A DNA stretch of 64,000 nucleotides from Patescibacteria group bacterium (GTDB taxonomy: Bacteria; Patescibacteriota; WWE3; JAMCXX01; JBBTUG01), in the NCBI GenBank assembly GCA_038063895.1, contig JBBTUG010000006.1, positions 6,701 through 70,700 on the forward strand, read 5' to 3'. Below, in pieces: positions 25,284 through 55,427 of this stretch; position 1 is the stretch's first letter, and each line of letters starts with the position of its first letter. The position numbers and the translations under genes are program-made. The notes under the pieces are model-generated. The model saw only the letters and a program-made list of their open reading frames with translations. It was not told the DNA's origin and did no database searches.

Positions 25284-26827
25284 ATAAACTTCTTGCCGAC
25301 TTCGGAATTACCGAAACAGATGGCGGACCGGAAATTATCGGGATTACTGACGACTCCCGAAAAGTAAAACCAGGATATTTGTTCGTAGCAGTAAAAGGGT
25401 TGGAGCATGATGGGCACAAATACATCGAACAGGCAATTATGGCGGGAGCGTGTGCGGTTGTGTTCGATGTAAAGTCAAAAGTTTCCGCCCAAGGCGGATC
25501 CGCCGAGGGAGGAAAAAGTCAAAAGTCAAAATTTTCAGGCACTATTTTCGTGGGTGTGAGAGGTTCAAGAAAGGCCCTAGGGCTTCTTTGGGCGGCGTGG
25601 TACGGGTATCCGGCCAAATCGTTAAGAGTCATCGGTGTGACCGGGACGGACGGAAAAACAACGACAGCTAACCTTATCTACCACCTGTTGAAATCGGCCG
25701 GAAAAAAAGTTGGCCTAATCTCGACGATCAACGCTCAAATCGGGAACGATAGTTTTGAGACCGGTTTCCACGTGACCAACCCGGAGCCGGAGTTGCTCCA
25801 AAAGTTTTTAAGATTAATGGTTGATCGGGGCACGGAGTTTGCGGTTTTGGAAGTAACCTCGCACGGAATTGATCAGGAACGGATTGCCGGAATCGGTTTT
25901 GAGATTGCCGTGGTTACGAACGTGGCGCGGGAGCATCTCGATTACCACAAAACGTATGAAAATTATCTAAATACAAAAGGGCGTCTACTCGCTTCCGACA
26001 AGGTAAGTATTCTCAATCGGGACGACAGCTCCTTCTCTTATTTAAAGAGTGTTTCCGGAGGCGAGGTGCTCAGCTACGGCATTCACCAAAAAGCTGATTT
26101 TCAAGCCACCAAGGTTACGCTACTTGGGGAATCCGCCGTATTTACCTTGGAGCCCGGTTCCGTTGAAGTAAAAATTAATCTGCCCGGAGAATACAATATC
26201 GCTAACGCTCTTGCGGCGGCGGCCGCGGCCTTCACTGTTGGGCTGAGTGGGAAGCAAGTCGCTGCAGGGCTTCAAAGTTTCCAGACGCTTCCGGGGAGGT
26301 TTGAGGAGATAAAGACCGGACGGGATTTCCGGGTCGTGGTGGATTTCGCGCATACGCCCAACGCGCTTGAGAGTGTCCTGTCTATTAGCCGTAAAATCCT
26401 GATCATACCCACACCCTTAGGGTCAAGGCTTCCCGACCCTAAGGACGAGAAACCGCAAGAGCCAAAATTAATTGTAGTTTTCGGGTGCGCGGGGGAACGG
26501 GACAGTGGGAAGCGGCCGCTGATGGGTGAGATTGCAGGCCGGTTGGCGGATATCTCGATCCTGACCGCGGAGGATCCCCGGCGCGAGGATGTTAACGGAA
26601 TTATTGAGCAAATTGCTGCGGGATGCCAAAAATCGGGTGAGCATATATTTATTAAAGAACCTGACCGGCGGAAGGCGATCGAATTGGCAATAAATATGGC
26701 CAAGGCCGGCGACTTAATTATTATCACCGGCAAGGGGCACGAGAAATCAATGTGCTTCGGGACAACAGAGTATCCGTGGAGTGATCAGGAAGTAGCAAAG
26801 GGTATTTTAGAAAGGAATAACAAATAA
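25274..26827 (+). CDS. murE: UDP-N-acetylmuramoyl-L-alanyl-D-glutamate--2,6-diaminopimelate (or L-Lys) ligase; carries in-frame repeat insertions
   Basis: 'VIGVTGTDGKTTTANLI' P-loop and 'VTNVAREHLDYH'. An 'EDPRRED' motif retains the Arg typical of DAP-type enzymes. Confidence 0.85.
   Translation: MRLDKLLADFGITETDGGPEIIGITDDSRKVKPGYLFVAVKGLEHDGHKYIEQAIMAGACAVVFDVKSKVSAQGGSAEGGKSQKSKFSGTIFVGVRGSRKALGLLWAAWYGYPAKSLRVIGVTGTDGKTTTANLIYHLLKSAGKKVGLISTINAQIGNDSFETGFHVTNPEPELLQKFLRLMVDRGTEFAVLEVTSHGIDQERIAGIGFEIAVVTNVAREHLDYHKTYENYLNTKGRLLASDKVSILNRDDSSFSYLKSVSGGEVLSYGIHQKADFQATKVTLLGESAVFTLEPGSVEVKINLPGEYNIANALAAAAAAFTVGLSGKQVAAGLQSFQTLPGRFEEIKTGRDFRVVVDFAHTPNALESVLSISRKILIIPTPLGSRLPDPKDEKPQEPKLIVVFGCAGERDSGKRPLMGEIAGRLADISILTAEDPRREDVNGIIEQIAAGCQKSGEHIFIKEPDRRKAIELAINMAKAGDLIIITGKGHEKSMCFGTTEYPWSDQEVAKGILERNNK
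26412..26447 (+). repeat. 36-bp palindromic element, copy A (in-frame inside murE)
   Basis: Arms 'ccttagggtc'/'gaccctaagg' with loop 'aaggcttccc'. It encodes PTPLGSRLPDPK. Confidence 0.8.
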
Positions 26828-26829
26828 TT

Positions 26830-28593
26830 ATGTGCGGAATATTTGGTTACATCGGAAATAGAAAACAAGCCGGACCACTCGTACTTGCGGGTTTGAAAAC
26901 ACTCGAATACCGCGGCTACGATAGTTGGGGAATTGCCTGGCTGGACAACGGTTCAATTAAAGTCATTAAAAAGGTCGGAAAAATCGGTCTGGCAGCGCCG
27001 AAATTCCCCCCGTCCTTTCTGGCCTTGGGCCAAACTCGGTGGGCGACACACGGGGGGGTAACGGTGGCAAACGCTCACCCTCATTTTGACTGTCACCGAC
27101 GGGTGGCGATTGTCCATAACGGGATCGTGGAGAATTACCAGGAGATTACAAAGAGCTTTAAAAAAACCCATCTTATCCGTTCCCAGACGGATACCGAAAT
27201 TATCAGTCATCTAATTGAGGAGGAGTTAGTGATTCGGAATAATTTTACGGTGGCAGTGAGAGCGGCTTTCTTACGCTTAAAAGGGCTTAATGCGGTGGTA
27301 GCTTTGGATAAGGATAACCGGCAGTTGGTCGCCGTTAAAAACGGGTCCCCTTTAGCAGTCGGTTTAGGCAAAGAGGAAAATTATCTGGCCTCCGACGCGC
27401 TGGGGATTGCGGAACACACTAAAAAAATAATTTATCTGGGAGATAACGAGTTGGCTGAAATTAGCGGCAAACGGGTTTCCCTTTACGATGTAAAAACCGG
27501 AAAACCGAAAAAAATAAAGATCAGTAAAATTGACTGGCAGCAAAAGGATGAAGGCTTGGGAAAATATCCCCATTACTTAATTAAGGAGGTTTATGACCAG
27601 CCCCGGGTGCTGGCGCGGATTAATAAAGAAGCGGGTGGCGACATCTCTTACTTGTCCCGGTTAATTGCCCGGAGTTTCGGGACCTATCTAATCGGTTGCG
27701 GTTCGGCCGCTTACGCCGCTTTAACCGGAACCTACTTTTTCAGTGAGATCGCGAAAAAGCACGTGAATTTTTCTATCGGGAGCGAATTTACTTTCCAGGA
27801 GCATTTTATTACGCCGAAAAGTCTGATCATCGCCCTTTCCCAAAGTGGTGAGACGGCGGATATCCTCGAAGCGGTAAAAAAAGCCAAAGCTCGGGGAGGC
27901 AAAATTGGCGCTTTAGTTAATGTTCCGGGCTCTTCTCTTTTCCGTCTGGCCGATTATAAAATTCTCATCGGAGCCGGACAGGAACACGCAGTTCTTTCGA
28001 CCAAAGCCTTCACCGGCCAAATCGCGCTTTTATTGCTAACAGCATACAGTTTAGCCGGTCAGGCGGAGTCGGGCCGCAAGGTACTGGCTCGCGCGGTCCG
28101 CTCGTTAAAAATTGTGTTAAATAACCATACTCAGCGTAGGGTTAAAAAATTAGCCGTTATGCTTAAGAATAAGGACCATGTCTACGTTATCGGGCGGGGT
28201 GTTTCTTATCCGGCGGCGCTCGAGGGCGCTTTAAAAATTAAAGAAGACAGTTATATCCACGCCGAAGGTTTTGCCGCGGGTGAGCTAAAACACGGGGTAA
28301 TTGCGCTGATTGAATCGGGAACACCTTGTTTTGTTATAGCCCCACCTGATGAGACTTTCCCTGCAGCGCTGGCGGGGGCGATGGAGATGAAAGCGCGGGG
28401 CGGAATAATAATCGGCCTGGCCGCTAGGAACAACGAAATCTTTGATTATTTTATTGAAGTGCCCGATTGCGGACAGGCGTCGATTATTCCCAATGTAGCC
28501 GTTTTCCAGACTTTAAGTTATTATTTGGCAGTGCTTCGGGGGGCGGATCCGGATAAGCCGAGAAATCTGGCTAAAAGCGTCACCGTGAAGTAA
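26830..28593 (+). CDS. glmS: Glutamine--fructose-6-phosphate aminotransferase
   Basis: 'MCGIFGYIG' N-terminal Cys and two SIS domains. 587 aa. Confidence 0.9.
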   Translation: MCGIFGYIGNRKQAGPLVLAGLKTLEYRGYDSWGIAWLDNGSIKVIKKVGKIGLAAPKFPPSFLALGQTRWATHGGVTVANAHPHFDCHRRVAIVHNGIVENYQEITKSFKKTHLIRSQTDTEIISHLIEEELVIRNNFTVAVRAAFLRLKGLNAVVALDKDNRQLVAVKNGSPLAVGLGKEENYLASDALGIAEHTKKIIYLGDNELAEISGKRVSLYDVKTGKPKKIKISKIDWQQKDEGLGKYPHYLIKEVYDQPRVLARINKEAGGDISYLSRLIARSFGTYLIGCGSAAYAALTGTYFFSEIAKKHVNFSIGSEFTFQEHFITPKSLIIALSQSGETADILEAVKKAKARGGKIGALVNVPGSSLFRLADYKILIGAGQEHAVLSTKAFTGQIALLLLTAYSLAGQAESGRKVLARAVRSLKIVLNNHTQRRVKKLAVMLKNKDHVYVIGRGVSYPAALEGALKIKEDSYIHAEGFAAGELKHGVIALIESGTPCFVIAPPDETFPAALAGAMEMKARGGIIIGLAARNNEIFDYFIEVPDCGQASIIPNVAVFQTLSYYLAVLRGADPDKPRNLAKSVTVK

Positions 28594-28695
28594 GGTAGTA
28601 ATGCCACTAATCTTCTCCACGAATTAACCACGAATGGGAAGATTATTTGTGGACTATTCGTGAAGGGAATTCGTGGCGTTAATTCCAAAAAAACT

Positions 28696-29679
28696 ATGAA
28701 GAATTTTAAAATTACCGTCATTGGTGGGGGCACCGGAACGTTTGTGGTGCTGCGCGGATTAAAAAATTATCCGGTCGACTTAACGGCTATTATTACCGTA
28801 ACCGACAGCGGCGGTTCGACCGGCCGTCTTCGGTCTGAGTTCGGATTTTTACCGGTGGGGGATTTGCGCCAATGCTTAGCGGCTCTGGCCGACGACGACA
28901 ATGAAGCCTTAATAAAGCTTTTAACCTACCGCTTCAATAAGGGAAGGGGAATTAAAGGGCATAATCTCGGCAATCTTATTTTAACAGGGCTGCGCGATAT
29001 TTTCGGCTCAGAGCCGAAAGCGCTGGAGCACGCCGCTTCTCTTTTCCGGATAAACGGAAATGTTCTACCGGTCTCTCTGTCCCAAGCAACGCTTGGCGCT
29101 GTTTATGAAAATGGGAAAAAGCTTATCGGCGAGCACGAGATTGATCAGCCGAGTTTTGGCGGAGGGCTGCGGGTCCGCCGGATTTTTCTCAGACCGGAAA
29201 TAAGCCTTTACGCTAAGGCGGCCAAAGCGATTGAGGATTCGGATTTGATAGTTCTCGGCCCCGGAGATATTTACACCAGTACCTCCCCCTGCCTTCTCGT
29301 CAACGGGATGAGAGAAGCGTTAAATAAATCCCGGGGACAGTTGGTTTACATCGTAAATTTAATGAACCGATATTCCCAAACCCACAATTTTAAAGTTTCC
29401 GATTATATTAGCGAAATTGAAAAGTACGCCTGTCGGCCGGTAGATGTTGCCGTTGTGAATACCGGAAAAATCCCGGCAAAATTTCTTAAGTTTTACCTTA
29501 AAGAACGGGCAACGATACCTCTTGATGATTTAGCGGAGAACGAAAAGGTGCACGTCATCCGTGGGGATTTCGCCCGCCGGCAGTTAATTGAAAAGGTGGC
29601 GGGGGATAAACTTCAGCGGAGTTACTTGCGTCACGACGAGGATAAACTGGCGCGGGCGCTGATTAAGATACTGCTGTAA
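28696..29679 (+). CDS. YvcK/GlmR-like (UPF0052/CofD family) gluconeogenesis factor-like protein
   Basis: 'MKNFKITVIGGGTGTFVVLRGLK' and 'TVTDSGGSTGRLRSEFG' are family signatures. A likely real start at 28696 lies inside the ORF-track ORF 28660..29679. Confidence 0.7.
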   Translation: MKNFKITVIGGGTGTFVVLRGLKNYPVDLTAIITVTDSGGSTGRLRSEFGFLPVGDLRQCLAALADDDNEALIKLLTYRFNKGRGIKGHNLGNLILTGLRDIFGSEPKALEHAASLFRINGNVLPVSLSQATLGAVYENGKKLIGEHEIDQPSFGGGLRVRRIFLRPEISLYAKAAKAIEDSDLIVLGPGDIYTSTSPCLLVNGMREALNKSRGQLVYIVNLMNRYSQTHNFKVSDYISEIEKYACRPVDVAVVNTGKIPAKFLKFYLKERATIPLDDLAENEKVHVIRGDFARRQLIEKVAGDKLQRSYLRHDEDKLARALIKILL

Positions 29680-29680
29680 A

Positions 29681-30835
29681 ATGAAAGAAATGGAAAACGA
29701 AAAGAAAAACATCGGAGTAATATTTGGCGGAATGAGCGCCGAATGCGAGGTATCTTTAGCAACGGGGAGATACGTTTACTCGCTGCTAAATAATAAAAAA
29801 TTTACCGGAACGCCATTTTATTTGGATAAAAAAGGCACTCTTTGGCAGGTTCCAGACAAACTGGTAATCCAAAATACGACGACGGATATCGAGCAGCGCC
29901 TGGAGAAGGACGCGAGCCGGGTAAATTTCGAGGACCTTCCCGGGAAAGTCAGCTGTGTTTTTAATGCGCTGTTGGGCAAGTACGGCGAGGATGGCTGTTT
30001 TCAGGCGATCTTGGAATTGTTGAAAATTCCTTACACCGGTTCAGGAATTCTCGCTTCCGCGTTGGGGATGGATAAAAAAGTCCACAAGAAAATGCTCTCC
30101 GGGGCGGGGTTTTTAGTGGCCAAAGATCTATTAATTCGTAATTCGGAATTCGATATTCGGAAAGTTACGGAAAAAGTTTCCAGGGAAATCGGTTTCCCCT
30201 GCGTTGTGAAGCCGACCCGGGAAGGTTCAAGTATGGGAGTGTCGGTGGTTAAAGAAGAAAAGGGTTTGGAAACAGCGTTCGAGTACGCCTTTAAGTATGA
30301 TCAGGAGGTTCTTGTCGAAGAGTATCTGAAAGGGATGGAGTTTACCTGCGTGGTTTGGGGCAACGACGATCCGAAAGCTATGCTCCCTACCGAAGTCGTG
30401 TTCGAGGGCGATTTTTTTACGTATGAAGGTAAATACATGCCGGGAAAAACCCAGACGATTACGCCCGCCCGGCTTTCGGAAGAGGGCTTGGCCGAGATAC
30501 AGCGCCAATCCGTGGCGATTTATCAGCTGATTGGTTGCCAGGGCTATGGCCGGGTTGACGGCTTTGTCGTTCCTAAGACCCTAAAGGTCGGGGAGCCCAG
30601 ACCTTTAGGGTCTTTGAGTTTGTCTGATATCTCAATTTACATCGCTGAGCCGCACACGGGAACAATTATGGTTCCTTCGTCTTTCGTTTTTCAACAGGCG
30701 GCGAAGTTCCGGATTGATCTGTCCACAGAATTCCATGGAAAAAAAGGTTCGATTCCGATGACCCCGCGCATTTTGGTAACAAAAATTATTGAGTTAGCCT
30801 TCGAAGCGTTTAGCAATAAGAAAGGATTATTATGA
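29681..30835 (+). CDS. ddl: D-alanine--D-alanine ligase (paralog 1; Lys-Tyr retained at the K215/Y216-equivalent position)
   Basis: ATP-grasp motifs 'FPCVVKPTREGSSMGVS' and 'FFTYEGKYMPG' (K at 30431-33, Y at 30434-36). The C-terminus is extended by a repeat insertion. Confidence 0.8.
   Translation: MKEMENEKKNIGVIFGGMSAECEVSLATGRYVYSLLNNKKFTGTPFYLDKKGTLWQVPDKLVIQNTTTDIEQRLEKDASRVNFEDLPGKVSCVFNALLGKYGEDGCFQAILELLKIPYTGSGILASALGMDKKVHKKMLSGAGFLVAKDLLIRNSEFDIRKVTEKVSREIGFPCVVKPTREGSSMGVSVVKEEKGLETAFEYAFKYDQEVLVEEYLKGMEFTCVVWGNDDPKAMLPTEVVFEGDFFTYEGKYMPGKTQTITPARLSEEGLAEIQRQSVAIYQLIGCQGYGRVDGFVVPKTLKVGEPRPLGSLSLSDISIYIAEPHTGTIMVPSSFVFQQAAKFRIDLSTEFHGKKGSIPMTPRILVTKIIELAFEAFSNKKGLL
30577..30612 (+). 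repeat. 36-bp palindromic element, copy B (in-frame inside ddl paralog 1)
   Basis: Perfect 13-bp arms 'gaccctaaaggtc'/'gacctttagggtc' with loop 'ggggagccca'. It encodes KTLKVGEPRPLG. Confidence 0.85.
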
Positions 30836-33913: not shown

Positions 33914-35383
33914 TTATCTATAAATATCAGGGAGGTCGTTTTCGAAGAGGATCAGAGAGTTGGGTTTGACTAATTGCGGGATTATCTCTTTGGTTGCCTG
34001 ATCGAGGGAGTCAGTGATGAATAATCTCTGACCTATTGTTCCGTTGTTCCATTGTTTCATTGCTGTGGCGTTGCTCCAGCCGCCTTCTCTAATTCCTTGC
34101 AGAAGGGCTGCACGGTTGGTTTTGTTGACGATCACGGCGTAATCAAAATTTTCGGCAATCAGTTCTCCTAACTTTTTATTCTCTTCGAACTGCTGTTTTC
34201 CCAATTCCACTATTCCCGGAGTCACTATTATTTTTGGGTAGTTGGGTAAACGGGTAATCAGTTTTATTGCGGCCCGGGCGCCCTCCGGGTTGCTGCTGTA
34301 GGCGTCATCAATTATTAACGAGTTTTCGGGGCCGTGGATTAGTTGTAAGCGGTGTTCCGGTGGGCTGACCTTGAATAGGCCGTGCCTTATTTCCTCTTCA
34401 GTTAAGCCTAAATATGTTCCTACAGCAATAGCCGCCAGGGCATTGCTGACGTTGTGGTCTGCCGGGAGGTTGAGGGTGTAAGTGTCTTGTTTTACCCTGA
34501 ACTCGGAGGATTCGGGAGAGGATGAAATAATTTCCGCCTGAAGATCGGCTTCAACTCCGTGCGGTTTGCTAATCCGGGAGTAACCTACTTTATTTATTAT
34601 AGTTTTTAGATAGAGTTCTACGCATGGTTGGGAGTACAGATTGAAAACCGCCAAGCCCTCCTCCGGAAGGGATTGAATCAATTCCGATTTAGCTTCCACG
34701 ATATTTTCCAAACTCCCGAACCGCTCCAGGTGCTGATTAGTTATTCCGGTGATAATCCCGATTTTAGGTCGAACCATCCGGCAGAGTTCCGCAATCTCGC
34801 CTTTTTTGTAGGCGCCCATTTCGACGATAAAGACTTCGTGCTCCGGCTTTAATTTCATATTGATGATACCGGCTATGCCGAAAAGCGTATTGTAGCTTTT
34901 TGGAGTCGCCAAAACTTCGTACTTCGTTGCGAGAACAGTTGCTAGGATTTCCTTCACCGTGGTTTTGCCGTAACTGCCGGTAATTCCGATGACCAATAGG
35001 TTTTTGTGTTCCGTGATAATTTTTTGGGCACGGAGAACCGTCCGGCGGCGGTTGATGATTTCGTATGGCCGGAGAACTAGTAAAGATATTAGAAGTAACG
35101 GCTGGGGGAACAGCTGAAGAAGAATAACGATAATTACACCCTTAAGGTCAAGGCTCCCCGACCTTAAGGGTGTGGCCCAGGGCTGAAATAGAAATATGGG
35201 AGCTAGGCTGAGGGCAGTGGCGCATATGAAAAGAAACCTGGCCTTCGAAGTCCACACCAGCGCCTTTTTCTTTTCCAGTCCTAAACGGAACAAATTTTGA
35301 ACGGTCCATTTAATGAAGCGGACTAGGTCGTATTCCAAAACCTGCAGGGCGTAAAGCTGGTTGTAAAGCGGGATGTACCTCAT
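33914..35383 (-). CDS. murF: UDP-N-acetylmuramoyl-tripeptide--D-alanyl-D-alanine ligase, with an N-terminal hydrophobic extension containing a repeat insert
   Basis: 'LLVIGITGSYGKTTVKEIL' P-loop and 'IGIITGITNQHLERFGS'. The start is set at Met 'MRYIPLYNQL' (35383) because the longer ORF overlaps the upstream hydrolase gene. The two genes overlap in an ATGA arrangement. Confidence 0.85.
   Translation of the reverse strand: MRYIPLYNQLYALQVLEYDLVRFIKWTVQNLFRLGLEKKKALVWTSKARFLFICATALSLAPIFLFQPWATPLRSGSLDLKGVIIVILLQLFPQPLLLISLLVLRPYEIINRRRTVLRAQKIITEHKNLLVIGITGSYGKTTVKEILATVLATKYEVLATPKSYNTLFGIAGIINMKLKPEHEVFIVEMGAYKKGEIAELCRMVRPKIGIITGITNQHLERFGSLENIVEAKSELIQSLPEEGLAVFNLYSQPCVELYLKTIINKVGYSRISKPHGVEADLQAEIISSSPESSEFRVKQDTYTLNLPADHNVSNALAAIAVGTYLGLTEEEIRHGLFKVSPPEHRLQLIHGPENSLIIDDAYSSNPEGARAAIKLITRLPNYPKIIVTPGIVELGKQQFEENKKLGELIAENFDYAVIVNKTNRAALLQGIREGGWSNATAMKQWNNGTIGQRLFITDSLDQATKEIIPQLVKPNSLILFENDLPDIYR
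35137..35172 (+). repeat. 36-bp palindromic element, copy C (in-frame inside the murF N-terminal region)
   Basis: Perfect arms 'cacccttaaggtc'/'gaccttaagggtg' with loop 'aaggctcccc'. It encodes PLRSGSLDLKGV in murF. Confidence 0.85.
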
Positions 35384-36105
35384 AAAATAAATTCCGAGAT
35401 TAATTTTGCGACCAGAGCCGGTTGTTCTATAAACGGGAAATGGCCGCACTGCGGGATAATTTTTAAGACCGAGTTTTTTATTCCCCTTTTCATAATCGCC
35501 GCGTCGCGGATGGGAGTTTCGGGATCTTCCTCGCCCCAAATAAGTAACGTTGGAGCCGCAATATTGCTCAACTTAGTCCGAAGGTCCTCTTCCACAATTA
35601 TAGCCATTGTCGCCTTCATCGGACCGGCGGCGCGGTAATCTTCCGATTGGAAGGATTTTGCCAGAGGTTTTTTAATAAATTCGGGAGAATTCGAAAAAGC
35701 TTTCGACATTAGAAGTTTCGTTTGGGTGAGGATGTCGCGGCGGCGGATTCCCGCGCTGTCAATCAAAATCATTTTCTTTACTCCGTTATATTCCAGCGCG
35801 TAGGCGAGTGCAATTTTCCCGCCAACCGAGTGTCCCAATAAAATGGGTGATTCGATTTCCAGTTCCTTAAAAAATTGATTTAATAAGGCGGCGTAATCGC
35901 GGCTGGAAAAAGGGGTTGCCGGAACCGAGCTTTCTCCGAAACCGGGCAGGTCCAAAAAGATCATTTGGAAAGGGAGCGCCGCGAGGTAAGGTTTTAAACT
36001 TTCCCAAATCTGCAGATTAGCTCCCCACCCGTGCAAAAAAACAATTTGTTCTCCGCGCCCGTAAACCTCGAAGTTGATATTCAGTCCCTTGATTGAGATG
36101 TTCAT
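35380..36105 (-). CDS. Alpha/beta-hydrolase fold protein
   Basis: 'VFLHGWGANLQIWE' and the nucleophile elbow 'GHSVGG'. 241 aa. Confidence 0.7.
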   Translation of the reverse strand: MNISIKGLNINFEVYGRGEQIVFLHGWGANLQIWESLKPYLAALPFQMIFLDLPGFGESSVPATPFSSRDYAALLNQFFKELEIESPILLGHSVGGKIALAYALEYNGVKKMILIDSAGIRRRDILTQTKLLMSKAFSNSPEFIKKPLAKSFQSEDYRAAGPMKATMAIIVEEDLRTKLSNIAAPTLLIWGEEDPETPIRDAAIMKRGIKNSVLKIIPQCGHFPFIEQPALVAKLISEFIL

Positions 36106-36119: not shown

Positions 36120-36155
36120 CACCTTAAAGATCATGGCTCTTCGACCTTTAAGGTG
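36120..36155 (+). repeat. 36-bp palindromic element, copy D (intergenic, in the 5' UTR of the hydrolase-murF operon)
   Basis: Arms 'caccttaaagatc'/'gacctttaaggtg' with one mismatch, and loop 'atggctcttc'. Confidence 0.8.
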
Positions 36156-45072: not shown

Positions 45073-47952
45073 ATGAGCAAAATTGAAGCCGTTCCCGATT
45101 TTCCCCTGAATGAAAGAGAAACTCTTGCGGGTTGGAAAAAAGACGGAGTGGAAAAGAAATATTTAGCCAGAAATGAGTCTTCCCCGAAGCGGTTCCGGTT
45201 TATCGATGGCCCAATTACGGCTAATAACCCGATGGGGGTTCACCACGCCTGGGGCCGGACCTACAAAGATTTTTTCCAGCGTTATAAAAATATGCAGGGC
45301 TTTGCCCAGAGGTTCCAGAACGGTTTTGACTGCCAAGGTCTTTGGCTCGAGGTTGAAGAGGAAAAGAGCCGGGGCTTTAATTCGAAGAAAGACATTGAAA
45401 ATTTCGGCTTGGCTAACTTCAGCCATGCCTGCCGGGCCCGGGTCGAGAAATATTCCGCCATTCAAACTGAACAATCGCAGCGGCTGGGGATGTTTATGGA
45501 TTGGGGAAATTCGTATTATACGATGTCCGAGACGAACAACCTTTATATCTGGCACTTTTTAAAAAAATGCAATGAAAAAGGCTGGTTGTATAAAGGCGTG
45601 AACTCGATGCCCTGGTGCGTCCGCTGCGGCACGGCGATTTCCGCTCACGAACTCTCCGACGAAGGTTATAAAATAGTGGAACACGAATCAGTTTACGTGA
45701 AGTTTCCGTTAGTTTCGGACGATTCCAAATCCACGGCAACAAGTCTTCTAATTTGGACAACGACGCCTTGGACGCTTCTCGCCAATGTGGCCGTGGCCGT
45801 GAATCCCGATTATTCCTACGTTAAAATCAGAACGGAAAGCCGGCCGGAAGAGTTATTAATCGTAGCCGAAAACCGTCTTTCCGTAATCCCGGACGGCTAC
45901 CAGGTGCTTGAAAAAATCGCGGGGAAAGACCTGGTTGGGAAGACTTACCGTGGGCCTTTTGATGAACTAGGGGCGCAAAAAGAAGTGCAGCACCGGGTAA
46001 TTGACTGGCCGGAAGTTTCGGAAACGGAGGGAACGGGACTGGTGCACATCGCTCCCGGCGCCGGCGAGGAGGACTTTATATTAGGGAAAAAATTTAAACT
46101 CCCGGTTTTGGCGCCGCTTGATGAGTTTGGGATTTACTTGCCCGGTTACGGCGAATTTACCGGTAAGGATGCCCGCCGGATTAATGCCGAAGTGTTTGCT
46201 TCTCTGGAAGCGAAAAAATTCCTTTTTAAAACCGAAAAAATAAAACACAGTTATCCGCATTGCTGGCGGTGTAAGGAGCCGTTGGTTTTCCGGGTGACGG
46301 AGGAGTGGTTTATTAAGGTTGACCCGATTCGTCCTCTGCTAAAGCAGCTAACTGAAAAGATTGACTGGCGGCCGGATTACGTCGGGAAAAGGATGCAGGA
46401 TTGGTTGTTGAATATGAACGACTGGCCGATCTCCCGCCGGCGATATTGGGGGCTGGCGCTGCCGTTTTATGAATGTCCGAATAATCACTTAACTGTCGTC
46501 GGTTCGAAAGAAGAACTAAGACAGTTGGCGGTGGAGCCGGAAAAGGTTGACCACTTGCCGGAACTGCACCGGCCGTGGATTGATGAGATAAAAATTAAAT
46601 GTCCGCAGTGCGGGACGACAGTGGCCCGGGTGAGTTACGTCGGTGACTGCTGGCTGGACGCGGGGATCGTTTCCTTTTCGACTTTAAAGTACCTCGAGGA
46701 TAAAAGTTATTGGGAGAAATGGTTTCCGGCGGAAATGGTGACGGAATACGTGGCCCAGGTGAAACTTTGGTTTTACTCCCTACTTTTTATGGCCGCGACT
46801 CTTGAAGAAAGAGCGCCTTTTGAGAAAGTTTTTACCGACGGGTATGTGGTGGATGAAAAAGGGGAAGTGATGCATAAATCGAAAGGGAATGCGATCTGGT
46901 TTGACGAGGCGGTGGAGAAGATGGGGGCGGATATTATGCGCTGGGTTTATATGCGCGCCGATAATGCTAAGGATATAAGGTTCGGTTACGGCATTGGTGA
47001 CGAGGCCCGCCGGCGTTTTTTCCTGATTTTATGGAATAGCCTGAAGTTCGTGCTGGATAACCGGGAGGTTGACGGAGTGCCGGTAGGGAAGTTATCGCAG
47101 GGGGTTGGAAAATCACTGCCGGTCCTCGACCGCTGGATTCTATCCCGCCTCAACAGCACGCTAAAGCTGGTGACAGAGGCGAATGATGATTATCACCCCC
47201 AGCCCGGGGCGTTGGCGATTGAAGGTCTGGTAAATGACTTATCCACCTGGTATATAAGGCGCAGCCGCAACCGGGTCGGACCGGCGGCGGAAAATCAGGA
47301 GGATAAAGAGTCTTTTTACCAAACCGCTAATTCCGTTTTTTCGGTTCTGGTCAGGATGCTCTCTCCGTATACGCCTTTCTGGGTCGAGCGGATTTATAAA
47401 TACTTGGGCGGGGAAAAGCTCTCGGTTCATCTTGAAGACTGGCCGGTTGTAGAGGAACTACGGATTGATGCTGAGCTTGAAAAGGAAATGGCGTTAGTCC
47501 GGCAGATTTGCGAGGCGGGTCACGCGGCGCGGAAAGCCGCTAAAATTAAAGTCCGACAGCCACTTGCTTCGCTCGATGTCAAAGTTTCCACCAAAGGTGG
47601 ATCCGCCTTGGGCGGACAAAATTCAAGATTAATAATTTCTGAAGATATAAAAAAACTTGTACTGGCGGAGCTTAACGTGAAACAGCTGAAGTTTACCGAA
47701 GAGGCGGGTCTGAAAGAGATGACGGTGGAATATGATTTGAATATCACTCCTGAACTGAAAGCTGAGGGCGAGGCGCGGGAGCTGATCCGTTCTATTCAGG
47801 AGCTGCGGAAAGAAAAAGGCTGCCGGCTGACGGACAAGATTGTGGTTTCGGCGTCGGCCTGGCCGGAGGCTTTTGAAGCCCTAATTAAGCGGGAAACTTT
47901 AACGGCAGAACTAAAACAGTCCTCCGATCCTCTTTCCATCACAGTTTTATAA
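45073..47952 (+). CDS. ileS: Isoleucine--tRNA ligase (type 2-like; atypical HIGH region 'GVHHAWG', KMSKS as 'MHKSKGN')
   Basis: 'KDFFQRYKNMQGF', 'FDCQGLWLEVE', 'DWPISRRRYWGLALPFYEC' and a zinc-binding 'CPQCG'. 959 aa. Confidence 0.75.
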   Translation: MSKIEAVPDFPLNERETLAGWKKDGVEKKYLARNESSPKRFRFIDGPITANNPMGVHHAWGRTYKDFFQRYKNMQGFAQRFQNGFDCQGLWLEVEEEKSRGFNSKKDIENFGLANFSHACRARVEKYSAIQTEQSQRLGMFMDWGNSYYTMSETNNLYIWHFLKKCNEKGWLYKGVNSMPWCVRCGTAISAHELSDEGYKIVEHESVYVKFPLVSDDSKSTATSLLIWTTTPWTLLANVAVAVNPDYSYVKIRTESRPEELLIVAENRLSVIPDGYQVLEKIAGKDLVGKTYRGPFDELGAQKEVQHRVIDWPEVSETEGTGLVHIAPGAGEEDFILGKKFKLPVLAPLDEFGIYLPGYGEFTGKDARRINAEVFASLEAKKFLFKTEKIKHSYPHCWRCKEPLVFRVTEEWFIKVDPIRPLLKQLTEKIDWRPDYVGKRMQDWLLNMNDWPISRRRYWGLALPFYECPNNHLTVVGSKEELRQLAVEPEKVDHLPELHRPWIDEIKIKCPQCGTTVARVSYVGDCWLDAGIVSFSTLKYLEDKSYWEKWFPAEMVTEYVAQVKLWFYSLLFMAATLEERAPFEKVFTDGYVVDEKGEVMHKSKGNAIWFDEAVEKMGADIMRWVYMRADNAKDIRFGYGIGDEARRRFFLILWNSLKFVLDNREVDGVPVGKLSQGVGKSLPVLDRWILSRLNSTLKLVTEANDDYHPQPGALAIEGLVNDLSTWYIRRSRNRVGPAAENQEDKESFYQTANSVFSVLVRMLSPYTPFWVERIYKYLGGEKLSVHLEDWPVVEELRIDAELEKEMALVRQICEAGHAARKAAKIKVRQPLASLDVKVSTKGGSALGGQNSRLIISEDIKKLVLAELNVKQLKFTEEAGLKEMTVEYDLNITPELKAEGEARELIRSIQELRKEKGCRLTDKIVVSASAWPEAFEALIKRETLTAELKQSSDPLSITVL

Positions 47953-50319: not shown

Positions 50320-50336
50320 TACTATAGCAAGAGCCT

Positions 50337-50741
50337 ATGGTTAAAAAAGCCGTAAAAACAACTAAAACAGTTAAAAAAGAGGTAAGAAAGGCCGTGGTCA
50401 AACTGGTTAAAAAGGCGCCGGCAAAGTCCGCCTGGGCAGTGGTTCCTCTTTCCGGGACGCAATTACGGGTTCACGAGGGCGATGTTTTCACCATCGACCG
50501 GGTCGGCCCGGAAGTTGGAAAGAGCTTTGAAGTAACTAAGGTTTACCTGGTCAACAACGGCACAGAGTTGAAAATCGGCCAGCCGGAAGTTGCGGGAGCG
50601 AAAGTCGTCTTTGAGGTTCTTGGAGACGAGCGGGGTGAAAAAATTGACGTTTTTAAATTTAAAGCCAAGGCTCGATACCGTAAACGCCACGGCCACCGTT
50701 CCGCTCTATCAAAAGTTAAAGTGATTAGTATTAGTGGCTGA
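50337..50741 (+). CDS. rplU: 50S ribosomal protein L21 (with a possible Lys-rich N-terminal extension)
   Basis: Core 'AVVPLSGTQLRVHEGDVFTIDRV...KFKAKARYRKRHGHR'. If the core starts at GTG (about 50430) the extension is absent. Confidence 0.8.
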   Translation: MVKKAVKTTKTVKKEVRKAVVKLVKKAPAKSAWAVVPLSGTQLRVHEGDVFTIDRVGPEVGKSFEVTKVYLVNNGTELKIGQPEVAGAKVVFEVLGDERGEKIDVFKFKAKARYRKRHGHRSALSKVKVISISG

Positions 50742-50754
50742 TTATTTTTAAACT

Positions 50755-51006
50755 ATGGCCCACAAAAAAGCCGGCGGGAGTAAAGCCCGACAAAAAAGTA
50801 ATAAAGAAGGAAAACGTTTAGGCGTAAAGCTTTTCGGCGGTCAGGTGATTAAGACCGGCCAGATAATTTTGCGCCAACACAGTGCGGTTTTTAAAGCCGG
50901 GGAGAATGTTGGGGTCGGCCGCGATTACACCATTTACGCTTTAAAAGACGGTGTTGTTAAGTTTACCCAAATCGCCGATAACCACAGCCGAGTCTCCGTA
51001 GTCTAA
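50755..51006 (+). CDS. rpmA: 50S ribosomal protein L27
   Basis: '[30 protein letters not shown]'. Confidence 0.9.
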
Positions 51007-51032
51007 TTTATCCTTAACATCCGATAAAAAAA

Positions 51033-51068
51033 CACCCTAAAGGTCGGTGGAGGTTGACCTTCAGGGTG
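51033..51068 (+). repeat. 36-bp palindromic element, copy E (intergenic, at the rpmA 3' end; terminator-like)
   Basis: Arms 'caccctaaaggtc'/'gaccttcagggtg' with one mismatch and loop 'ggtggaggtt'. It is followed by 'taaatgttttt'. Confidence 0.75.
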
Positions 51069-51080
51069 TAAATGTTTTTC

Positions 51081-52406
51081 TCAACGATCCTCTCTCGGGC
51101 AGTCATCGAACGCAGGGTTCGAGCATACCGTCATCCGCCTTCCCATCTTCATTGGTGCGTGGCAGAACGGACACTGTCCAAGTCCCGTATTAACTTTCGG
51201 CGTCTTAATTCGTTGGCTGCCGACCGGAACGTAAGGAACCCCAAGATTCCACATCCCCGGCTGTGCAACTGACTTCGGACACAGGTGGTTCGCGAAAGCA
51301 AAGTCGCAGCCAGGGCATTGCCACTCTGAGGGGCGGGCAGGAAAGCCTTCCCGTTGATATTTCTGGTAAGTCGCAATCGCCAATTTCAGGCTGACCAGCG
51401 TTTCTTTCCAGAGCCGTGAATCGAAGGGAATGGGTATCTTTTCGAGGCGCATCGGATTGAGGGTTAGTCGGTGGACCCACAACGAAACGTTCTCCGCTTT
51501 AATCCCAAGTCCGGAAAAAGCCTGCATTGCCCAGCTGGCATACAGCGCTAATTGGAGCTGACAGTCCTGATGGTCCAGCTCGGAGTGGATATCGATGCCG
51601 GTCACTTTGTGGTCGATGATCCGGACCGAATACTGGCCGTCGTGCTCAGTGAGAATAACGAGATCAACGGCTCCGTTTAATCCCCATTTTTCTCCCTCAG
51701 TCATCGTGAGGCCGGTACCGGAAAGCAGCCAGTTGAGGTCAATAACCGGGAGACGCATCTCCGCGTCCCACCAGACCAGCTTCGTACCGCTGCGGGCTAA
51801 GGCTTCTCCGTAGGCTTTGACAGACACCATCTGGTGATGATGCCAAAGGAAACGGATAACCTGCTCCAGGTAGTAACGCATCGTCGGAATTTCCCAATCG
51901 TTTTGGGTGCCTATTCTGTGCCGGAAAAACTTTTCATCCGTAAACTTTCCTAAGATGTTGCTCAACCCCCACCGCGTCCGAAAAAATCCGACTTCGCTTA
52001 GTGACTTTTGTTCGGACAGCTGACGGGCGAGGTGGTAAACGGTACCGAAAGCGTTGCCCGGAGAGCTGGGTTGGCATGGATGTTCTTTCCGCAGCTGGTA
52101 GGCAAGCGGACAACCAAATCCCAGCATCTGAACCGCGAGCGTCGGGGTCATCCGGTTTGCCGGCCGGTGTTTTAATATCACCTCGCTGGTCGGTATGCAG
52201 TTTTCGCAAAGCCGTGATTTCGGCGCTTTCTTCCGAGGCAAGCCCGGTAAACTTTTTCCGGGTAAATAAAGGCGGCCGGTTCGTAAAGAGAAATTCCCAC
52301 AGCGGGCGCAAACCGCCGGGTGGTTCCAATTCCGGGATCTGACTAAAGCCGGCTTACGCATCGCTAAATGCGGCTGCATAAGCACCAGTTGTGTCGCTAA
52401 AGTCAT
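51081..52406 (-). CDS. PD-(D/E)xK (RecB/Cas4-like) nuclease family protein with Fe-S-type cysteine cluster
   Basis: 'GAVDLVILTEHDGQYSVRIIDHKVTG' supplies nuclease motifs II and III. 'QLQLALYA' is the RecB-family QhxxY motif. The N-terminus has 'CARCG' and the C-terminus 'CPGCDFAFANHLC'. Confidence 0.5.
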   Translation of the reverse strand: MTLATQLVLMQPHLAMRKPALVRSRNWNHPAVCARCGNFSLRTGRLYLPGKSLPGLPRKKAPKSRLCENCIPTSEVILKHRPANRMTPTLAVQMLGFGCPLAYQLRKEHPCQPSSPGNAFGTVYHLARQLSEQKSLSEVGFFRTRWGLSNILGKFTDEKFFRHRIGTQNDWEIPTMRYYLEQVIRFLWHHHQMVSVKAYGEALARSGTKLVWWDAEMRLPVIDLNWLLSGTGLTMTEGEKWGLNGAVDLVILTEHDGQYSVRIIDHKVTGIDIHSELDHQDCQLQLALYASWAMQAFSGLGIKAENVSLWVHRLTLNPMRLEKIPIPFDSRLWKETLVSLKLAIATYQKYQREGFPARPSEWQCPGCDFAFANHLCPKSVAQPGMWNLGVPYVPVGSQRIKTPKVNTGLGQCPFCHAPMKMGRRMTVCSNPAFDDCPREDR

Positions 52407-52437
52407 CTCACCTCCTTAACCCTTAAATTGTCGGGTG

Positions 52438-53016
52438 CTAATATTTTGCGTGAGCGATAAATGAAAAACTGTTTGGCGGCCAAAGGCGAACAAGACTGCG
52501 GCCGATAATTTCGCTTTTGGTTACCGCGCCCCATGTTCGGGAATCGGAGCTAACCGCGCGGTTATCACCGAAGACGACGTAGGAGTCCGCCGGGACCGTG
52601 TATTTCGTTTGATTTGGCATTGCGGTTTTACCTTCGGTGACCATTCCTGGTTCGAGATAGTCCTCTTTCAACTGGTAGCCTTGGGGATGGGTGGCATTAT
52701 AGATATAGACTTTTCCGTCACTAATCGTGACGCTCTCTCCCGGCAGACCGATCACTCTTTTAATGTAGTCGCGGTGTGGCGGCTCGGGAGATTTGAAAAT
52801 AATAACGTCGCCGCGTTGCGGATTTCTAAAGCGGTAAGTAACTTTATCGGTCAGGAGATATTCGCCATTTTTAAAATCCGGCAACATCGAGTTGCCGTAG
52901 ACCTCGTGCAACTGGGCAACAAAGACGTTCACGACGATAAAGAGCGCGAACGCCAAAACGACGGTTTCGAGGATATCGCTGATAAAGAGATAAAGGTCGT
53001 GAAATATTTTTTTCAT
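52438..53016 (-). CDS. lepB: Signal peptidase I
   Basis: 'YGNSMLPDF', 'RGDVIIFKSP', 'KRVIGLPGE' and 'VFGDNRAVSSDSR'. The start is trimmed to MKKIF to avoid the tRNA. Confidence 0.8.
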   Translation of the reverse strand: MKKIFHDLYLFISDILETVVLAFALFIVVNVFVAQLHEVYGNSMLPDFKNGEYLLTDKVTYRFRNPQRGDVIIFKSPEPPHRDYIKRVIGLPGESVTISDGKVYIYNATHPQGYQLKEDYLEPGMVTEGKTAMPNQTKYTVPADSYVVFGDNRAVSSDSRTWGAVTKSEIIGRSLVRLWPPNSFSFIAHAKY

Positions 53017-53020
53017 AGGC

Positions 53021-53097
53021 TTGGTGCGCATGCCTGGAATCGAACCAGGGACCTCTACGATGTGAACGTAGCGCTCTAACCATCTGAGCTACATGCG
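53021..53097 (-). tRNA. tRNA-Val (anticodon CAC), CCA encoded
   Basis: Reverse complement folds as a cloverleaf: acceptor GCGCATG/CATGCGC, D-arm GCTC-AGATGGTTA-GAGC, anticodon stem CTACG with loop TTCACAT, T-arm CCTGG-TTCGATT-CCAGG, discriminator A, then CCA. Confidence 0.85.
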
Positions 53098-53117
53098 CTT
53101 AAGAATAAATGGTGTCA

Positions 53118-53140
53118 ATGAAACAATGAAACGATGAAAC
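53118..53140 (+). repeat. Tandem 'ATGAAAC' octamer-spaced repeat (x3) forming overlapping mini-ORFs (MKQ, MKR, MKP...)
   Basis: 'atgaaacaatgaaacgatgaaacc'. Each TGA stop overlaps the next ATG (ATGA). Confidence 0.6.
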
Positions 53141-53224
53141 CATTCTCCCCTGTAGAATTATAATTCCCCTTCCGTATTAACTCAACCCGAAAATCGGCGG
53201 ATTTTGCTATAATTTTGAAGAATA

Positions 53225-54514
53225 ATGAACCTTCGCGTTAAAAAAGTGGCCGGGAATACGTTGTTCCAATTAGCTGGAAAGGCGGTTTCAATCACCTGTT
53301 CGCTGCTGGCGACGGCGTTAATTACCCGCCGGTTTGGTGAGAATGGCTACGGCCTGTTTGCCCTAATGACGACTTTCGCCGCCTATTTCTACCTGGTGGT
53401 GGATTTCGGCATTAATGCCATCGTGATCCGGGCGGTGACGGAAAATAAGGAAAAGATCGCCGATTACTTCCGCAACCTCTACACTTTCCGTTTTTTGTTC
53501 TCTTTAGTTATCTTTTTAGTTGTTCTTTGCCTTCTGCCCCGGATTAATTTTAAAACCTCCGAACTCAGTCTTGTCCGGTGGGGGATTGCGATCAGTTTAT
53601 TTACGGTTATTTCCCAATCCCTTTATATCTCCGCCAACGCGATCTTCCAAAAAATATCCCGCTACGATCTTTCCAACCTCGCCTTAACCGCCGGAAATAT
53701 TCTGGCCCTACTGCTGACCCTTCTCTTCCTTTTCCTAGGCAAAGATTTGCTGTGGATGGTAGGGGCGACGGTAGTGGGAGCCTTTTTGTCCGTGGCTTTT
53801 TCCTTTGCGCTGATCCGGCCTTTCGTGCACTCCCTTCGGCCGTCGTTCGAGACGAAAGTGTGGAAAGAAATATTACTGCCGTCCTTGCCGGTAGGACTGG
53901 GGCTAATCACGATGGTGATTATGGCCAAGACGGATATGTTTTTGCTCTCAACAATTACTTTGCCCTCAGCTTTGGGCTATACTAACGGCCAGGCTTTAGG
54001 CTTCTACGGTCTGGCCTACAAAGTTTTTGAGACCGCCCTGGTTTTCCCGACCTTCTTTATCAACGCCCTCTACCCGTTACTCTTGGAGGATCATTTTTCC
54101 GACCGGGAGAAACTTAAAAACACCGTGAAGAAATCGGCTCTGTTTCTCTTTCTCATCGGGCTGGTGGCAGCTATTGTAGGCATTATTTTCGCCCCCTTTG
54201 CTATTACGGTTCTGGGTGGGAGCCGTTTCTTACCCGCCGTCGCGCCGCTGCAAATTCTCCTGCTGTCGCTGCCGATCTTCTTTCCTTCGGCTCTGTTTGT
54301 CTGGCTGTTAGTTACGCTAGGGCGGGAAAAATATCTGCCCTTAATTTACGCGTTCGGATCCGTATTTAATATCGCCGGCAATCTGTATTTTATTCCCCGT
54401 TACGGTTTTCTCGCTTCCGCGTGGCTGACCGGAATTACGGAAGTAATTGTTACCGTTTTGACGGCCTATTTATCTTTAAAAATACTTTTTGCCAAGGAAG
54501 GTTCCCGTGCTTAA
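53225..54514 (+). CDS. wzx: Polysaccharide flippase (Wzx/MOP superfamily)
   Basis: 429 aa with about 12 TM segments. The N-terminus 'LRVKKVAGNTLFQLAGKAVSITCSLLATALITRRFGENGYGLFAL' is a polysaccharide_synt signature. An extended -10 'TGcTATAAT' at 53205-53213 suggests a leaderless transcript. Confidence 0.7.
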   Translation: MNLRVKKVAGNTLFQLAGKAVSITCSLLATALITRRFGENGYGLFALMTTFAAYFYLVVDFGINAIVIRAVTENKEKIADYFRNLYTFRFLFSLVIFLVVLCLLPRINFKTSELSLVRWGIAISLFTVISQSLYISANAIFQKISRYDLSNLALTAGNILALLLTLLFLFLGKDLLWMVGATVVGAFLSVAFSFALIRPFVHSLRPSFETKVWKEILLPSLPVGLGLITMVIMAKTDMFLLSTITLPSALGYTNGQALGFYGLAYKVFETALVFPTFFINALYPLLLEDHFSDREKLKNTVKKSALFLFLIGLVAAIVGIIFAPFAITVLGGSRFLPAVAPLQILLLSLPIFFPSALFVWLLVTLGREKYLPLIYAFGSVFNIAGNLYFIPRYGFLASAWLTGITEVIVTVLTAYLSLKILFAKEGSRA

Positions 54515-55427
54515 TCCCCTGATATCCATTGTTATTGCCTCAAGCCGAAAAGATAGGAATAAGCTTTCGGCGTGTTTGGATTCCATTTACAAGGGATCTT
54601 TTCCGGCTGCTTCTTTTGAAGTTATTGTTGTCGACAGCGGGGCGGGGGACGAGGCAAAAGATTATCTTTTGGAGACAGCGAAAAGTCGCCCCAACCTTGT
54701 GCCTGCCTTTCCCGGCTTTGGTAATATCGGTCCGGCGCGGGCGCGAAATATTGGGATTAAGCTGGCCAAGTCGTCCTTGGTGGCTTTCACAGATGATGAT
54801 ATTTCGGTTGATCCGCAATGGCTGGAAAAGATTACTAAGGCTTTTCTTGAGCATCCCGAAGTGGCCGCTGTTGGCGGAATGACTTTGCCCCCGGACTCCT
54901 TGAGGCGAAATCCGTTTGCCGAATACGAATCGTCTATCTACCAACGCTATCTGAAAAATGGTTGCGCGGGCAGTTACTTATCAACGACGCGGGACGAGCA
55001 CCCGGTATTTACCGGCAATATTGCTTATCGGAAGGAGGTTTTAGAAAAAGCCGGGGGTTTCAGCGAAAATTTTCCGCCTTTTGTCTATGGGGAAGATGGG
55101 GATTTAAAGGAACGGGTGCTAAAAATGGGCGGCCGGTTTTTGTACATCGACTCGGTAAATTACCACAATACGGAGTACAGTCTCGCCAGCTTTTGGCAAA
55201 AAGAGGAGAAACGGGGGGCGGGGATTTTGCGCTATCGGAAAGACCACTACGGGACGTCTAGGCTTACACCTTTAAGATCGGGGAGCCGTGACCTTAAAGG
55301 TGTTTTGCATATGGTTATGAACTTAATACACCTTAAAGGTGTAAAAAATATTATGGGTATGTTTATTCTGGGTTTGGCGGTTGTCGCCCGACAAGTGGGG
55401 AAAATTCGTTACTATGGAAAAGTCTAA
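54489..55427 (+). CDS. GT2 family glycosyltransferase (3' end altered by palindromic-element insertions)
   Basis: 'ISIVIASSRKDRNKLSACLDSI...FEVIVVDSGAGDE...AFTDDDISVDPQW'. The C-terminal roughly 50 aa are encoded by repeat copies F and G. Confidence 0.6.
   Translation: MPRKVPVLNPLISIVIASSRKDRNKLSACLDSIYKGSFPAASFEVIVVDSGAGDEAKDYLLETAKSRPNLVPAFPGFGNIGPARARNIGIKLAKSSLVAFTDDDISVDPQWLEKITKAFLEHPEVAAVGGMTLPPDSLRRNPFAEYESSIYQRYLKNGCAGSYLSTTRDEHPVFTGNIAYRKEVLEKAGGFSENFPPFVYGEDGDLKERVLKMGGRFLYIDSVNYHNTEYSLASFWQKEEKRGAGILRYRKDHYGTSRLTPLRSGSRDLKGVLHMVMNLIHLKGVKNIMGMFILGLAVVARQVGKIRYYGKV
55267..55342 (+). repeat. 36-bp palindromic element copy F (55267-55302) plus a solo arm G (55329-55341), in the 3' end of the GT2 ORF
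   Basis: Arms 'cacctttaagatc'/'gaccttaaaggtg' with loop 'ggggagccgt'. A solo 'caccttaaaggtg' follows. Together they encode TPLRSGSRDLKGV...HLKGV. Confidence 0.8.

Follow-up and report, generated by a model that had tools for sequence, protein, structure and literature searches.

Probable REP-type hairpin repeats within coding sequences of a groundwater Patescibacteria bacterium

Repetitive extragenic palindromic (REP) sequences of Proteobacteria are located between genes, and it is debated whether their role is selfish, commensal or beneficial. To our knowledge, systems that pair REPs with REP-associated tyrosine transposases (RAYTs) have been studied almost only in these bacteria. Here, we analyzed a stretch of 64,000 nucleotides from a Patescibacteria group bacterium (assembly GCA_038063895.1, contig JBBTUG010000006.1, positions 6,701 to 70,700 of the forward strand), hereafter called the window, in which palindromes of 36 bp are dispersed over genes and intergenic regions. 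We consider it probable, at roughly 0.8, that these palindromes are REP-type hairpin repeats of a REP/RAYT system in a groundwater bacterium of the Patescibacteria, or Candidate Phyla Radiation (CPR).

REPs of 20-40 bp within open reading frames (ORFs) were described by Di Nocera et al. 2013 (PMC3733652) in several species, most in Opitutus terrae and Rickettsia conorii (RPE-4, RPE-6), and were interpreted as tolerated loop insertions. According to the same study, CGTC repeats, including RPE-4 and RPE-6, are not associated with a transposase gene. The statement in a preliminary description of the window that in-frame palindromes are known only as long Rickettsia palindromic elements (RPEs) is therefore not tenable. 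Our literature search found no paper linking RAYTs to Patescibacteria/CPR, and a full-text search for the arm sequences of the present elements returned unrelated primers only.

The 36-bp hairpin family

Six full hairpins begin at positions 26412, 30577, 35137, 36120, 51033 and 55267 of the window and are accompanied by one solo arm. Each consists of a 13-bp stem and a 10-nt loop, adding up to 36 bp or 12 codons. A degenerate pattern search of the window recovered five of the six, with none expected from 100 shuffles; the copy at 26412, whose right arm is degenerate, falls outside the pattern and was identified by direct inspection. When a covariance model trained on the six copies was used to scan the whole window with its speed filters switched off, it matched exactly these six at 48.7-60.2 bits, the next-best match being the solo arm (55329-55341) at 11.5 bits. 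Pattern search, inspection and covariance model thus bear out the six copies and the solo arm that had been listed before. The stem is paired to 96%, four of its pairs are changed on both sides, i.e. in a compensatory manner, and its covariation score lies above those of all 500 shuffles. The folding energies of the elements as single-stranded DNA (ssDNA) range from −7 to −17.8 kcal/mol, and the z-scores lie between −3.7 and −7.9. In the broad sense of the term, a REP is an imperfect palindrome of about 20-40 bp capable of forming a stem-loop, and the 36-bp elements agree with this description. The 13-bp arms are quasi-palindromes in themselves.

The MurE protein encoded in the window is identical to a protein of the metagenome-assembled genome (MAG) GCA_964357555.1, named Patescibacteria group bacterium at NCBI, and thus the host is a CPR bacterium. 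Identical MurE proteins are also present in Hainich groundwater assemblies (well H41). On other Hainich contigs, four more copies that share the CACC arms and the loop were found by an arm-pattern scan of metagenomes followed by the covariance model; the pattern scan did not return the window's own contigs, although these match the pattern. One of the additional copies is intergenic, one lies in a class I/II aminotransferase gene (TPLGSRLPDPKGV) and two lie in genes for membrane proteins, one of these two with a double compensatory change in the stem (CCCGGAAGG / CCTTCCGGG). The family is thus real and dispersed, as had been assumed, but with an aminotransferase and two membrane proteins among its hosts the supposed restriction to peptidoglycan genes has to be abandoned. 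The ends read (T)A-CACC...GGTG-T(A), with TA directly 5′ in six and T directly 3′ in eight of the ten copies, and the mean identity of arm plus loop across these ten unrelated sites is 86%.

Seven of the ten copies are intragenic and three intergenic, so that the predominantly extragenic location of REPs does not hold for this family. Every one of the seven coding copies is read in a stop-free frame, as the preliminary description had stated for the copies then known, and for five of the seven only a single such frame is available. Because 36 bp correspond to 12 codons, purifying selection acting on random insertions would leave just such a stop-free, in-frame pattern. At gathering thresholds, Rfam reported only a tRNA in the window. 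A CRISPR interpretation was ruled out, given the lack of arrays and the uniqueness of the flanks, and so was a restriction-site palindrome since the arm center is variable (CTTAAG, CCTTAGG, CTAAAG).

A RAYT-type transposase in the same MAG and its relatives

A Y1/HUH tyrosine transposase of the RAYT type (P0121, 232 aa; Pfam Y1_Tnp) is encoded outside the window at L049:8834-9532, on contig CAYHLR010000034.1, which belongs to the same MAG as the window and is present in the same samples. The AlphaFold model of P0121 (pLDDT 84.5) gave as top Foldseek match in the PDB the entry 4ER8 (E = 2.5e-5), the E. coli RAYT in complex with a REP hairpin, while matches 2-24 were proteins of the HUH/Y1 fold, including the TnpA proteins of IS608 and ISDra2; when the PDB was searched by sequence or profile, the RAYT yielded only marginal matches to ISDra2 TnpA. 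H90 and H92 of the motif C-(L/F/P)-M-P-N-H-(F/Y)-H and the tyrosine of RY(I/V)HL are invariant among 26 homologues. The gene is found once per contig carrying it, with a LysM gene on one side and nrdG-nrdD-nrdR on the other, and a sister species possesses a 43% identical homologue at the same LysM - RAYT - nrdG - nrdD - nrdR locus. A solo arm reading TACACCTTTAAGGTGTA is located at L049:8807-8823, 12 nt upstream of the P0121 start codon, where the motif of the solo arm in the window (TACACCTTAAAGGTGTA) recurs. In the sister species, a perfect palindromic arm (TAGACCCTTAGGGTCTA) is likewise placed 12 nt upstream of the RAYT start.

Two collection scans with the hairpin pattern resulted in 86 pattern-fetched loci with a total of 589 kb. 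A complete hairpin-RAYT-hairpin unit, the arrangement that characterizes a REPtron, was found in locus L079: one hairpin at 928-963 and another at 1720-1755 enclose an ORF of 237 aa (1007-1720), and a third copy lies inside the ORF. The ORF product scores 31.2 bits against Pfam Y1_Tnp (cut-off 23), and its best NCBIfam match is REP_Tyr_transpos. Using this ORF as tblastn query, we found homologues at nine independent places among the 86 loci, one of them being the Hainich contig L049 with P0121. Loci L010 and L021 (Moraniibacteriota) had at first been read as two copies, a reading rejected since they are overlapping contig ends holding one copy, in which the hairpin resides inside the RAYT gene. 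At the eight other places, an arm is located inside the RAYT gene in six and 24-33 bp away in two. In other lineages, relatives of P0121 have hairpins with these arms (NACCYTWARGGTN) beside or even inside their genes. Taken together, the RAYT in the same MAG, the unit in L079, the nine places and the fold of P0121 point to a REP/RAYT system. Since a matching RAYT-type transposase is encoded in the same MAG, the hairpin family is a new REP/RAYT variant with intragenic REPs and not a new class of elements; the earlier notion of a distinct element gives way to REP-type hairpins tied to this RAYT.

Many RAYT genes of this clade carry an arm within their own coding sequence, read as NPKG(L) at a conserved site near residue 70, and some a second one near residue 170 or 190. 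A full hairpin occupies the in-gene site in L079 (1188-1222), in L044 (6481-6516) and in the Moraniibacteriota MAG (L010:6320-6352 with L021:27-59). The RAYT of the window organism has no in-gene NPKG(L) arm. Dense arrays of the 13-bp arm occur beside RAYT homologues on two contigs from metagenomes, with 25 arms in L069 (16-1700) and 14 arms in L061 (1490-2510); the arms are spaced by about 18-24 bp and form chains of short-loop hairpins. Also among the scan results were numerous hairpins from Anaerolineales MAGs and soil metagenomes that have the same arms (G/A/C-ACCYTWARGGTC) but other loops; the majority of them are intergenic, and this holds for the related GACC-arm hairpins of soil metagenomes as well. 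L043 and L019, each with two hairpins about 800-950 bp apart, were rejected as transposase units, the intervening gene coding for an uncharacterized membrane protein in L043 and for a GT2 glycosyltransferase in L019. Single matches in Treponema, Arenibacter and Ignavibacteriales MAGs are not palindromic and probably due to chance. In a Candidatus Leptovillus affinis MAG (L007:6647-6748), two copies of a related hairpin (AACCCTTAGGGTC-N10-GACCCTAAGGGTT) stand 68 bp apart with matching flanks, and this pair is a tandem duplication of the element plus its surroundings.

Host genes, age of the insertions and alternative explanations

According to Pfam, the four genes of the window that harbor a hairpin code for MurE, a D-Ala-D-Ala ligase (Ddl), a Mur ligase and a GT2 glycosyltransferase. 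All four ORFs remain open across the in-frame hairpin, and the four peptides quoted in the preliminary description are correct. The hairpin at 26412-26447 (+), with the loop AAGGCTTCCC and the degenerate right arm, is part of murE (25274-26827, +) and encodes residues 380-391 (TPLGSRLPDPKD). The first of two ddl paralogues (29681-30835, +) contains the hairpin at 30577-30612 (−), which has GACC...GGTC ends, is part of a palindrome reaching 19 nt per arm and is translated into residues ~300-311 (KTLKVGEPRPLG). With its perfect 14-bp stem, the hairpin at 35137-35172 (+) belongs to a MurF-like Mur ligase gene on the minus strand (33914 to ~35383), where the insert TPLRSGSLDLKGV is positioned between two hydrophobic N-terminal segments. 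The hairpin at 55267-55302 (−) encodes TPLRSGSRDLKGV near the 3′ end of the GT2 gene (54507-55427, +), which also contains the solo arm at 55327-55343 (strand not applicable), a perfect 17-bp palindrome (TACACCTTAAAGGTGTA) that is translated as HLKGV and precedes the next gene by about 70 nt.

Two copies of the window are intergenic. The one at 36120-36155 (+) belongs to the 5′ leader of a minus-strand operon of an abhydrolase and the murF-like gene, between a promoter-like site (minus strand, 36194-36165) and the start codon at 36105. The other, at 51033-51068 (−), lies between rpmA (L27), which it follows by 27 nt, and a convergent gene of 441 aa, whose stop is 13 nt away (gene positions taken from L030). 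An A run borders the copy on one flank and a T-rich stretch borders it on the opposite one, a setting classic for REPs and terminators. A simple terminator scan gave no call at this copy because the loop exceeds 8 nt.

Whether the segments are true insertions can be judged from homologous proteins. In MurE, the segment encoded by the 36-bp element is missing from the closest homologues (79%, 74% and 61% identity), which confirms the insert as genuine. Its position is a hypervariable loop between the middle and the C-terminal domain, and since this loop is hypervariable in all homologues, a clean target-site duplication is unreadable in the empty-site comparison. In the AlphaFold model of MurE (pLDDT 84.1), residues 378-398 are predicted without secondary structure and residues 381-386 have a pLDDT below 50, consistent with the placement in a loop that had been expected. 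At the position of the Ddl1 insert, the Ddl2 paralogue has nothing. The Ddl1 orthologue of a syntenic sister species (L103, GCA_041643115.1) contains a segment of the same length, a decayed copy in which 21 of 36 nt are identical to the window copy and 4 of 13 stem pairs are left. The MurF-like orthologue in L103 has kept the loop and part of the right arm (TCGGGGAGTTTTAACTCTAACGGTG) and shows a 6-bp duplication. GT2 orthologues (77% and 74% identity) are likewise 306 aa long and contain a decayed copy, whose left arm is intact in P0242. The preliminary description had reasoned that non-palindromic DNA encoding the same segments in relatives would speak for ancestral sequence. Such segments exist in part, with the same length at the Ddl1 and GT2 sites and a similar one at the MurF-like site. 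Judged by sequence comparison, however, the segments of the sister species are recognizable decayed copies of the element and not ancestral protein sequence, indicative of an old insertion rather than of none, and the MurE site is empty. The MurE copy is thus younger, whereas the other three, with remnants in sister species, predate the species splits, and insertion activity therefore covers a long period.

These observations can be accommodated in a mechanism drawn by analogy with the E. coli TnpA-REP and IS200/IS605 systems. The enzyme would bind the hairpin in ssDNA at replication forks, cut at the hairpin foot and re-join the hairpin elsewhere, by which copies would be spread and possibly replaced. 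In a densely coding genome, most insertions would fall into genes, and only those with a length divisible by three, read without a stop and placed in tolerant loops or linkers would survive purifying selection. Such a filter of length, frame and loop explains the in-frame pattern without an adaptive role for the peptide. Perfect stems with compensatory changes may owe their upkeep to hairpin-templated (quasipalindrome) correction, to recognition by the RAYT or to the two combined. The behavior of the elements is that of selfish or semi-selfish DNA, in line with an idea already voiced in the preliminary description.

Several observations weigh against a REP/RAYT origin. Window copies match one another at 27-31 of 36 nt and their positional orthologues at only 14-21. 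In the loop, the old copies of the window (Ddl1, MurF-like, GT2) share 7-8 of 10 positions with their paralogues, compared to 0-5 of 10 with positional orthologues, and these old copies are near-perfect palindromes; third-codon identity between the species is about 59%. Simple old insertion followed by neutral drift would not predict this homogeneity; its possible causes are renewed insertion at old sites, gene conversion and selection acting on the individual copies. Neither a transposition event nor presence/absence polymorphism was observed among strains, a comparison proposed in the preliminary description, as every assembly with the loci carries the copies. A covariance-model search of the relatives L101, L102 and L103 returned no intact copy, and the sister species possesses the RAYT but no intact copy in 28 kb of its sequence, 21.6 kb of which was scanned by covariance model and repeat scan and 6.7 kb by inverted-repeat scan only. 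The GTAG/CGTC tag of the described REP superfamilies is present in none of the ten copies, which have only a weak TA/T flank. P0121 is flanked by a solo arm alone, the nearest full hairpin being 6.8 kb away. Its only NCBIfam family match, RAYT (NF047646), scores 46.2 bits compared with an equivalog cut-off of 80 bits, and P0121 is too divergent for the RAYT equivalog. Finally, copy density is known from only about 84 kb of unbiased sequence with six copies, and contigs L051 and L083, which hold three of the four additional copies, are linked to the MAG of the window only by site, coverage range and the identical family.

That the hairpins, and especially the palindromic arm of 13/17 bp, are selected functional sites which resemble each other owing to shared function and not to recent copying appears unlikely to us. 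They could be binding sites of a dimeric DNA-binding protein, possibly of the RAYT as regulator, or RNA or DNA structures controlling transcription, mRNA decay or replication. The solo arm in the GT2 gene is 100% identical in nucleotide sequence among three species with a third-codon identity of only 59%, which suggests constraint at the DNA level and would fit such a function. The same applies to the arm that precedes the RAYT start by 12 nt in two species and differs in variant between them, to the near-perfect palindromes with similar loops in the window opposite decayed positional orthologues, and to the two copies of which one lies in a 5′ leader and the other where convergent genes end. 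Shared function is, however, difficult to reconcile with both orientations relative to transcription and with unrelated proteins and positions, nor does it account for orthologous copies that decay freely in sister species with the host genes retained, and the strong tie to a transposase family points to mobility as origin. As a later exaptation, a functional role would be compatible with a REP/RAYT origin.

Two other explanations have far less in their favor. It is very improbable that the hairpins are minimal MITEs (miniature inverted-repeat transposable elements), in which a DDE insertion sequence, for instance an IS630/Tc1-like one with TA target duplication, would have been reduced by loss of its interior to two 13-bp terminal inverted repeats and moved in trans by the DDE transposase. 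The arms do resemble terminal inverted repeats, and TA precedes six and T follows eight of the ten copies, but TA is not cleanly duplicated on both sides in most of them. Moreover, none of 112 fetched loci contained a DDE transposase with CACCYTWAAGGTC ends, the arms co-occur tightly with Y1/HUH transposase genes, and 36 bp is far below known MITE sizes (review PMC10969869). Least credible of all is an ancestral protein sequence that is palindromic by chance, or a local template-switch origin without movement. It draws on the same-length segments at the Ddl1 and GT2 sites of sister species, which are recognizable as decayed copies of the element, and is already contradicted by the shared 10-nt loop, which local palindrome formation could not produce. 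Ten copies at unrelated sites with 86% mean identity of arms and loop, 0 being expected by chance, three of them intergenic, and the absence of the MurE copy from 79% and 74% identical homologues argue in the same direction.

Within the REP/RAYT explanation, a more far-reaching version is conceivable, which we put forward tentatively and regard as rather doubtful. In it, the NACCYTWARGGTN hairpins form a third REP superfamily beside GTAG and CGTC, common to CPR and Chloroflexota-like bacteria and served by a RAYT clade of their own. The system would then be more than junk in this minimal CPR genome; in-gene copies would be actively held identical to a master sequence, old sites being overwritten through RAYT-dependent replacement or through gene conversion, and the 17-bp palindrome would be a conserved operator-like site. 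If true, this version would explain perfect copies despite near-saturated synonymous sites as well as the invariant solo arm across species and the transposase kept at one syntenic locus. Because positional orthologues are decayed in the sister species, upkeep of old copies by the RAYT is open to a tractable test.

The window contains a second family of in-frame palindromic inserts, which measure 30 bp or 10 codons (TCCGCCCAAGGCGGATCCGCC...) and give four matches with at most 3 mismatches, compared with 0.01 expected. One copy is located in murE (25484-25513) and specifies SAQGGSAEGG in the N-terminal region of the protein, modelled with a pLDDT below 50; another, in ileS (47587-47616), falls between the anticodon-binding and the C-terminal domain. 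In the 79% identical MurE (P0002; L102:1715-1735), this family occupies a different site, namely the loop that holds the 36-bp element in the window. Other patchy short inserts occur in MurE homologues of the CPR lineage (alignment A1, columns 22-36 and 94-113), among them SASMIRIIE near the N-terminus of P0002, P0006, P0007 and P0009, its variant PALMIQTIE in P0013, and an insert of 20 aa in P0008. These sequences suggest that repeat-derived insertions are common in MurE proteins of this lineage.

Two further regions of the window stand out apart from the hairpins. Four independent assemblies (L001, L002, L004 and L005) end at window position 28660 in the glmS-cofD spacer (~28620-28690), which contains an imperfect inverted repeat (AATTAACCACGAAT ... 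ATTCGTGGCGTTAATT); the shared end could be due to strain variation or to a repeat. From 59091 to 64000, the window comprises a variable defence/toxin island with a GC content down to 0.40. It codes for AbiEi/AbiEii, Phd/YefM and ParE, and Bro-N; next come the methylase of a type III restriction-modification system, a Dam-like methylase and a Res helicase. In gene content, the island is not the same in L029 and L030; for instance, only in L030 and L031 is a GIY-YIG ORF called.

Comparison with described systems

A REP/RAYT pair in a CPR bacterium widens the host range of such systems. Core genes (MurE, Ddl, MurF-like ligase) contain most copies within their coding sequence, as loops of 12 residues, which shows how repeat length and frame are filtered when intergenic space is scarce and provides a concrete source for short lineage-specific insertions in these proteins. 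Annotators and structure modellers should be aware that such 12-aa loops are repeat-derived.

With the REP or REPIN plus RAYT systems of E. coli and Pseudomonas (Nunvar 2010; Bertels & Rainey 2011, PMC3116915; Messing 2012, PDB 4ER8), the family shares dispersed imperfect palindromes of 20-40 bp, compensatory stem variation, a Y1/HUH transposase at one syntenic locus with 4ER8 as best match, hairpins flanking the transposase gene, here in related lineages, and copies at convergent gene ends. Unlike the REPs of these species, it has no GTAG guide tetranucleotide, its 13-bp arms are quasi-palindromic and 7 of 10 copies are intragenic. In contrast to REPINs, its copies are singletons and not inverted doublets, and the host is a CPR bacterium. 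The RAYT has about 230 aa including a C-terminal extension, compared to 165 aa for the 4ER8 chain.

Like the intragenic GTAG/CGTC REPs of Opitutus terrae, Thauera, Xanthomonas and others (PMC3733652), the elements lie wholly inside ORFs of known proteins, add a short extra peptide, occur in essential genes and are interpreted as insertions that loops or linkers tolerate. Those REPs are mostly intergenic, and the intragenic inserts among them are in the majority dimers or clusters that add 20-30 aa, whereas the present family consists of single 12-codon units with an intragenic majority and with a different tag and different stem sequences. In-frame palindromes in housekeeping genes of a small-genome bacterium, at surface-compatible positions, are a trait in common with Rickettsia RPEs (RPE-1 and related; Ogata et al. 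2000, 2002). RPE-1-type elements of ~100-150 bp with inserts of 30-50 aa are set apart by size, being about four times longer than the 36-bp elements with their 12 aa, and the CGTC repeats RPE-4 and RPE-6 differ from our family by its RAYT-type gene in the same MAG. The HUH/Y1 fold and, here presumed by analogy, the recognition of subterminal hairpins in ssDNA connect the transposase to TnpA of the IS200/IS605 family (IS608, ISDra2). While these TnpA genes reside inside multi-copy insertion sequences, the P0121 gene keeps one conserved chromosomal position, and only the 36-bp hairpins are multi-copy.

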